Of a DNA stretch of 64,000 nucleotides, positions 61,112 through 63,772 are shown piece after piece. A model generated the notes under the pieces. It worked only from the letters and a program-made list of their open reading frames with translations. It had not been told where the DNA came from and made no database searches. The position numbers and the translations under genes were made by a program. The stretch is from Eledone cirrhosa (Eukaryota). Location: the NCBI GenBank assembly GCA_964016885.1, contig OZ024759.1, positions 35,650,001 to 35,714,000 of the forward strand, given 5' to 3'. Each line of letters begins with the position of its first letter. Position 1 is the first letter of the stretch.

Positions 61112-61147
<36 letters not shown>

Positions 61148-63772: not shown

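Follow-up and report, generated by a model that had tools for sequence, protein, structure and literature searches.

One intron of the spectraplakin gene in the window analysed here (the whole 64-kb stretch of DNA) contains a head-to-head pair of multi-copy octopus repeat ends, each carrying a type I hammerhead motif. The pair likely originates from one insertion of a Penelope-like element (PLE), or of a non-autonomous derivative of such an element, into a (TA)n tract of the intron, and it is predicted to be catalytically silent.

A palindrome in a spectraplakin intron

The palindrome consists of two arms of 111 nt each, at positions 61144-61254 and 61267-61377, which differ at five positions (61288, 61304, 61324, 61331, and 61363 in the coordinates of the right arm) and are separated by a 12-nt spacer (61255-61266). 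An earlier reading of this DNA, made from the sequence only, had described an inverted repeat with arms of about 110 bp, five mismatches, and a 12-nt loop, and this description holds, with the same mismatches and spacer. The 261-nt palindrome region folds at -175.1 kcal/mol (z -32), and none of 200 shuffled sequences folded as well. The left arm, on the minus strand, is a 5'-truncated copy of a repeat end whose 3' end points outward into (TA)n; the right arm, on the plus strand, is a second repeat-end copy, and its outward-pointing 3' end runs into an A-run and (TA)n. The insertion is flanked by two (TA)n tracts, (AT)15 at 61115-61144 and (AT)n at 61380-61394, which are the left and right portions of the likely target site. 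PLE insertions may carry a tail of 30-40 bp at one end; no one-sided extension is seen at this locus, and a target-site duplication is unreadable within (TA)n. The spacer may be a further piece of the element that lies upstream of the right arm and belongs to it; contigs from sequencing run X1 (see below) align from 61255 or 61258 to 61345 or 61358, with 9-10 differences. The two ORFs that cover the palindrome (61091-61462 on the plus strand and 61116-61415 on the minus strand) have no credible Pfam match, the one sub-threshold match having an E value of 0.0026.

The palindrome is located inside a GT-AG intron of 980 nt (60819-61798, minus strand), which leaves 421 nt to the donor on one side and 325 nt to the acceptor on the other. 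The exons on both sides match the Octopus bimaculoides protein A0A0L8H113: the upstream spectrin-repeat exon (61799-62005, minus strand) is 100% identical over 69 amino acids, and the downstream exon (60681-60818, minus strand) is 76% identical over 46 amino acids. Altogether, 17 segments of the Octopus bimaculoides protein align along the window at 69-100% identity, which suggests that the host is an octopus or a near relative.

Other repeats were noted in the window. The right flank of the palindrome (61410-61505) also belongs to a multi-copy repeat, one found in both organism A and organism B (see below). There are two near-perfect tandem arrays, one of 4.6 copies of 48 bp (62035-62257), just upstream of the splice acceptor of an exon, and the other of 3.3 copies of 49 bp (60331-60490). 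A dispersed intronic repeat occurs twice (61523-61744 and 63377-63581, parts of which are 76-90% alike), and a weak tRNA-like match on the minus strand (62793-62861; 30 bits against a cut-off of 29) is probably the head of a tRNA-derived SINE. Antisense in a spectraplakin intron lies a LINE frame of 1040 codons (29456-32575, plus strand) that encodes an AP endonuclease, a reverse transcriptase (RT), and a PHD finger; because this open frame is uninterrupted, it suggests a young copy.

Hammerhead motifs on both strands

A type I hammerhead descriptor run on both strands of the window found just two sites, one in each arm. The motif in the right arm (61273-61347, plus strand) has an 8-bp stem I (61273-61280 paired with 61340-61347), a core at 61281-61287 and 61327-61330 that consists of the boxes CUGAUGA and GAAA, a bipartite stem II of 39 nt (4 bp, a 3x3 internal loop, 6 bp, and a 13-nt loop), and a 2-bp stem III (61331-61337); the cleavage site is GUA, with the cut predicted after 61339. 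In the left arm, the motif lies on the minus strand, that is, in the sense of the gene (61174-61248; predicted cut after 61182, with positions mapped from the right arm); the 5' helix of its stem II is entirely Watson-Crick, whereas stem III is disrupted by an A at position 15.2 (61190). The span, the strand, and a stem III mismatch had been proposed for the left arm from the sequence only, and they hold. In both arms, the core boxes (CUGANGA and GAAA) and an NUH cleavage site (GUA) are surrounded by three helices, with stem I open, of 8, 4+6, and 2 bp in the right arm and without one stem III pair in the left arm.

Among 100 shuffled windows, no site was found if stem III was demanded, or if at least 8 bp in stem I and at least 4 bp in stem II were required, and among 100,000 shuffles of the arm, the strict descriptor gave no matches and the loose form gave 29 strand matches. 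At 10.1-11.1, the right arm has G.U and the left arm A-U, both letters being common in the family described below. The G10.1-C11.1 pair of type I hammerheads is highly conserved, though not absolute. GUA cleavage sites have been reported in active natural hammerheads (PMC1636495).

The claim that the right arm folds as a type I hammerhead stands for the anatomy (the 8-bp stem I, CUGAUGA, the 4+6 bp stem II, GAAA, and GUA) but not for the predicted fold: in the right arm alone, stem I is predicted with pair probabilities of just 0.08-0.13 and stem II with 0.03. In the predicted misfold of this arm, the CUGA box is drawn into pairing with stem II. For the left arm alone, stems I and II are predicted at probabilities of 0.55-0.95. 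The Rfam hammerhead models, which had been suggested as a check of the motifs, gave no match in either arm at E values of up to 5-10, a blank that weighs little because these models likewise miss a textbook minimal hammerhead at 41 kb of the window.

The latter belongs to a second hammerhead family (41011-41046, minus strand, in an element spanning about 40916-41110). It is of the minimal type: the first core box is followed by an additional A, stems I and II have 4 bp each, the stem III region is palindromic, and the 3' end runs into (TA)n. Its core is intact and lies in the gene sense in another intron of the spectraplakin gene. A truncated copy of this element (28137-28232, minus strand) is 95% identical and has its 5' end at most 2 nt from the predicted cut site, so that this single case could reflect copying of cleaved RNA. 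An older copy (18657-18727, minus strand), 85% identical, has a mutated second core box and ends near (TA)n.

A multi-copy repeat family with recurrent head-to-head copies

Four of nine listed sequencing runs, X1 and X7 (organism A), X4 (organism B), and X6, were aligned, at 80% likeness, to the 266 bases of the spacer, right arm, and right flank (61255-61520), with 61365-61404 skipped. In run X7, 702 of 12.5 million raw reads matched and, in run X1, 1223 of 16.3 million contigs, both counts including the separate flank repeat. Over the arm, the depth in X7 is about 150-390 plus 70-140, with variants from many start places; such depth does not measure copy number. In organism A, the arm belongs to a multi-copy repeat. 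In organism B, solely 61327-61362 was matched, at high depth, and none of the contigs of run X6 matched, which is not proof of absence.

In both X1 and X7, the depth climbs from the spacer, on the inner side, to the outer end, the pattern expected from 5' truncation; in X1, part of this gradient stems from a relative that is more abundant and has only the 3' half (61327-61362) in common. X7 is a restriction library, and its read ends at 61351 and 61444 coincide with AATT sites and are artefacts. A family boundary at 61351 was accordingly rejected, the more so as X1 contigs run past it, and the loose ends at 61272-61274, also on an AATT site, were discounted as a boundary.

A second, much shorter head-to-head copy is present in the window at 20103-20158, with a 24-bp stem, an 8-nt loop, and (TA)n at its left. 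Its arms begin at family positions 61345 and 61355, the loop deriving from the longer arm, and it holds only sequence downstream of the predicted cut. In addition, two X1 contigs switch strand, one at 61279/61325 and the other at 61291/61332. Given the 20.1-kb copy and these two contig joints, head-to-head copies with unequal arms recur in this family.

The predicted cut lies 38 nt before the shared 3' end. The 38-nt segment that follows it in the right arm (61340-61377, plus strand) is common to the four 3' ends that the family has in the window, to the extent that each one reaches, and includes a terminal weak 6-bp hairpin that is not significant (z -0.7). (TA)n adjoins three of the four 3' ends, a small sample in a TA-rich window.

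Matches outside these data were rejected as chance. In the 87 metagenomic loci, stem I never exceeds 4 bp, and the best likeness to the arm spans 18-30 nt (E 0.002). Two IMG/VR loci have an exact 21-nt match that is antisense in a long, viral-type coding frame and lacks an upstream first core box; the two viral contigs that share this chance match are L088 and L089, and the 565-codon frame of L089 resembles, by eye, an RNA-dependent RNA polymerase.

Variation in the hammerhead region

Within 61273-61347, 16 positions vary among the variants listed, all of them outside the 11 core and 4 stem III positions. The P values for this avoidance are 0.057 and 0.017; eight of the variable positions are CpG and one is at the edge, and without these, P is 0.25, which is not significant. 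Six of the seven remaining non-CpG variants are neutral for the structure: one at N7 (T61285C, 53 of 264 X7 reads), three in loop II, and two swaps between wobble and Watson-Crick pairs. The swaps are G61288A, which changes G.U to A-U (102 of 267 X7 reads), and G61344A, which changes U.G to U-A (171 of 514, a count that may be inflated by one stack of 98 reads starting at 61320). The seventh, T61316C (75 of 402 X7 reads), disrupts one stem II pair. Among the listed variants, for which the reads are unphased, no compensatory two-sided change is demonstrable, only one-sided wobble swaps. Avoidance of the core by the listed variants is at most suggestive of selection on the ribozyme.

The arms themselves differ from the rest of the family. 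The right arm has a T at 61324, in stem II, where the family has a C in 482 of 521 X7 reads, and the variants listed for the family do not include the stem III change of the left arm. Of the four arm differences that the alignments cover, two coincide with the most polymorphic family sites, 61288 and 61304 (post hoc P about 0.011), a weak hint that the arms were copied from two templates.

Origin of the palindrome

The sequence-only reading had pointed to PLEs and retrozymes, with their inverted pseudo-LTRs, and an origin from a PLE is likely: the ends are head-to-head, 5'-truncated, hammerhead-bearing, and set in (TA)n. PLEs harbor hammerheads in their pseudo-LTRs, their insertions are 5'-truncated and often have an adjoining inverted truncated copy, and some clades (Neptune, Naiad) favour (TA)n (PMC8557442). 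The family studied here has its hammerhead near the 3' end, as in PLE pseudo-LTRs, so that each arm would be a piece of a putative pseudo-LTR, and 5' truncation together with an adjacent, inverted, truncated copy in the head-to-head arrangement is found at the palindrome, in the 20.1-kb copy, and at the two contig joints. Pairs of minimal hammerheads on opposite strands, 100-700 bp apart, were reported in 2014 (PMC4209133), and 190 PLE families account for 6.83% of the genome in O. vulgaris (PMC13282606).

Membership in the PLEs is deduced from this architecture because no RT/GIY-YIG parent was found. Among 53 of the 106 candidate frames of the window, plus five more, no linked ORF of this type was found, and the sole RT is that of the AP-endonuclease LINE; given a short truncated insertion, such an ORF is not expected to persist. 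The octopus Naiads were rejected as the parent, their 3' ends having no match to the arm: by eye, the last approximately 500 nt of the Naiad_Obim and Naiad_Ovul consensus sequences both differ from the arm, and among four short strings from the arm, three are absent from the compared part of the Naiad supplement and one occurs there once in an unrelated context.

Under the PLE explanation, the hammerhead-bearing pseudo-LTR end of the parent would have been copied twice. Each cDNA would begin at the 3' end of the element, at the TA target, and stop early, and the pair would be joined 5' to 5', either through priming from both target strands, possibly with two RNAs, or through fold-back self-priming; both arms would have gained private mutations later. 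The formation of the inverted ends of PLEs is stated to be unresolved (PMC8557442). The head-to-head arrangement, the commonest among inverted ones, has been ascribed to self-priming (PMC3846280). In work with a purified PLE protein, for which a dimer is predicted, both strands of the target were cleaved and extended, and the hammerhead was dispensable for insertion in vitro (PMC11167929). We lean weakly towards two-strand priming.

Among the alternatives, the palindrome could be the remnant of a non-LTR retrozyme, an array of tandem type I hammerhead repeats spread via circular RNA, that inserted in inverted form. The type I topology, a 2-bp stem III like that of canonical metazoan motifs, and the lack of an ORF in the palindrome are all compatible with this origin, and mussel retrozymes similarly have no typical tertiary contacts (PMC7229834). 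However, there is no tandem copy at the palindrome locus and no direct-repeat joint among the joints listed for the 266 aligned bases, and the 3' ends are fixed 38 nt past the cut site rather than permuted. We therefore consider a retrozyme origin improbable, bearing in mind that it is close to the PLE explanation because a preprint derives retrozymes from PLE pseudo-LTRs (10.64898/2026.07.22.740005).

It is also conceivable that a solo insertion came first and was duplicated in inverted orientation later, by local template switching or hairpin repair; the near-symmetric arms, the short spacer, and the AT-rich, microsatellite-flanked site would fit. This scenario seems highly improbable, given that the same geometry is found at 20.1 kb and in two contigs, that on each side the inversion extends no further than the 3' end of the element itself, and that the location of arm differences on polymorphic sites fits two templates better.

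A MITE or foldback DNA transposon that has long terminal inverted repeats (TIRs) with a hammerhead-like motif and inserts at TA would account for the outward-facing inverted ends, the TA-rich target, and the internally shortened derivative at 20.1 kb, yet we rate it no higher than a later duplication. Most reads cover a single arm, with no opposite-strand joints listed in X7 and two contigs with such joints in X1 (from short reads and a restriction library), and the outer ends vary in the A/TA run. We know of no description of hammerheads in the TIRs of DNA transposons; by contrast, hammerheads are typical of PLEs (PMC8557442, PMC4209133).

Predicted silencing and effect on the host gene

The ribozymes of both arms are predicted to be silenced by mutual pairing. 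On either strand, the antisense arm would be transcribed first, and the resulting 111-bp hairpin would leave the hammerhead unfolded; this lock would operate on both strands because the head-to-head geometry puts the antisense arm first. According to folding predictions, forcing the hammerhead costs 95 kcal/mol in the gene-sense transcript and 110 kcal/mol on the plus strand, and a hairpin of -126 or -133 kcal/mol is available once the motif is complete. Poor cleavage of monomers has been reported for metazoan PLE hammerheads (PMC4209133).

The gene-sense copy had been proposed to be both mutated and locked in the duplex. The stem III mutation is indeed present, and the lock is predicted, but a special disarming of this copy is unsupported because the plus-strand copy is damaged as well (T61324 and the predicted misfold) and the lock applies to both strands. 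Protection of the host is likewise unsupported, given that both arms are damaged and that an intact gene-sense minimal hammerhead lies elsewhere in the same gene. Nothing seen at the palindrome requires host selection.

The predicted gene-sense hairpin contains 71 paired adenosines, and editing of the duplex by ADAR is plausible. The hairpin would be a passive ADAR substrate; the duplex has no exon sequence and therefore would not itself direct recoding. Inverted Alu pairs in introns are ADAR substrates. In squid, intronic repeats are edited (PMC9068888), and the palindrome would share with these inverted-repeat substrates a long, near-perfect duplex in the pre-mRNA. That the palindrome is a co-opted regulator, a disarmed, duplex-locked ribozyme or an ADAR hairpin kept by the host to tune the spectraplakin pre-mRNA, is scarcely credible: the broken gene-sense stem III, the paired adenosines, and the editing in squid would fit such a role, but neither arm is undamaged, the lock arises on either strand as a by-product of the geometry, another intron of the gene tolerates an intact gene-sense minimal hammerhead core, and the hairpin, which contains nothing of the exons, is more than 300 nt away from either splice site.

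Comparison with known elements

With the hammerheads in PLE pseudo-LTRs, as described by Cervera and de la Pena in 2014 (PMC4209133), the palindrome shares a type I topology in which stem III is weak and stem II long, AU-rich flanks, a large number of single, dispersed copies, and closely spaced, paired motifs on opposite strands. Unlike the hammerheads described there, however, it has an 8-bp stem I, a bipartite stem II of 39 nt that contains a 3x3 internal loop, a 10.1-11.1 pair that is G.U or A-U instead of G-C, no extra nucleotide after A9, a non-palindromic UUU loop III, a GUA site, and no linked ORF that could be found. The inverted pseudo-LTRs of EN+ PLEs (Penelope of Adineta, PMC3846280; Naiad and Neptune, PMC8557442) similarly come as unequal head-to-head copies with 5' truncation and (TA)n, whereas here both halves are shortened to at most 111 nt and no ORF separates them; the Naiads, as described in PMC8557442, have no canonical hammerheads. 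The non-LTR retrozymes of Cervera and de la Pena 2020 (PMC7229834) are likewise non-coding repeats whose hammerhead is of type I, with 2 bp in stem III, but they are head-to-tail tandem monomers of about 220-390 bp, in contrast to the head-to-head, non-tandem arrangement at this locus. In the part of the literature covered, we found no description of this kind of cephalopod hammerhead, the nearest label being 'HHR_half_core' on two cephalopod Naiads.

The palindrome is thus likely an ordinary PLE leftover with a somewhat unusual, long stem II, and the arrangement of its hammerhead-bearing repeat end is one already described for PLEs. A more far-reaching interpretation, which we regard as rather unlikely, is that the arms represent an undescribed octopod family of hammerhead retroelements of roughly 110 nt, in which stem II is long and bipartite and 10.1-11.1 lacks a G-C pair, that would insert as head-to-head doublets from two RNA templates via a dimeric Penelope enzyme priming both target strands; such doublets would silence their own ribozymes and seed intronic ADAR hairpins. 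Very short palindromic copies of this kind permit a simple test, arm versus arm, of how the inverted ends of PLEs form. If the doublet interpretation is true, comparison of the arms over many doublets would separate twin priming from self-priming.
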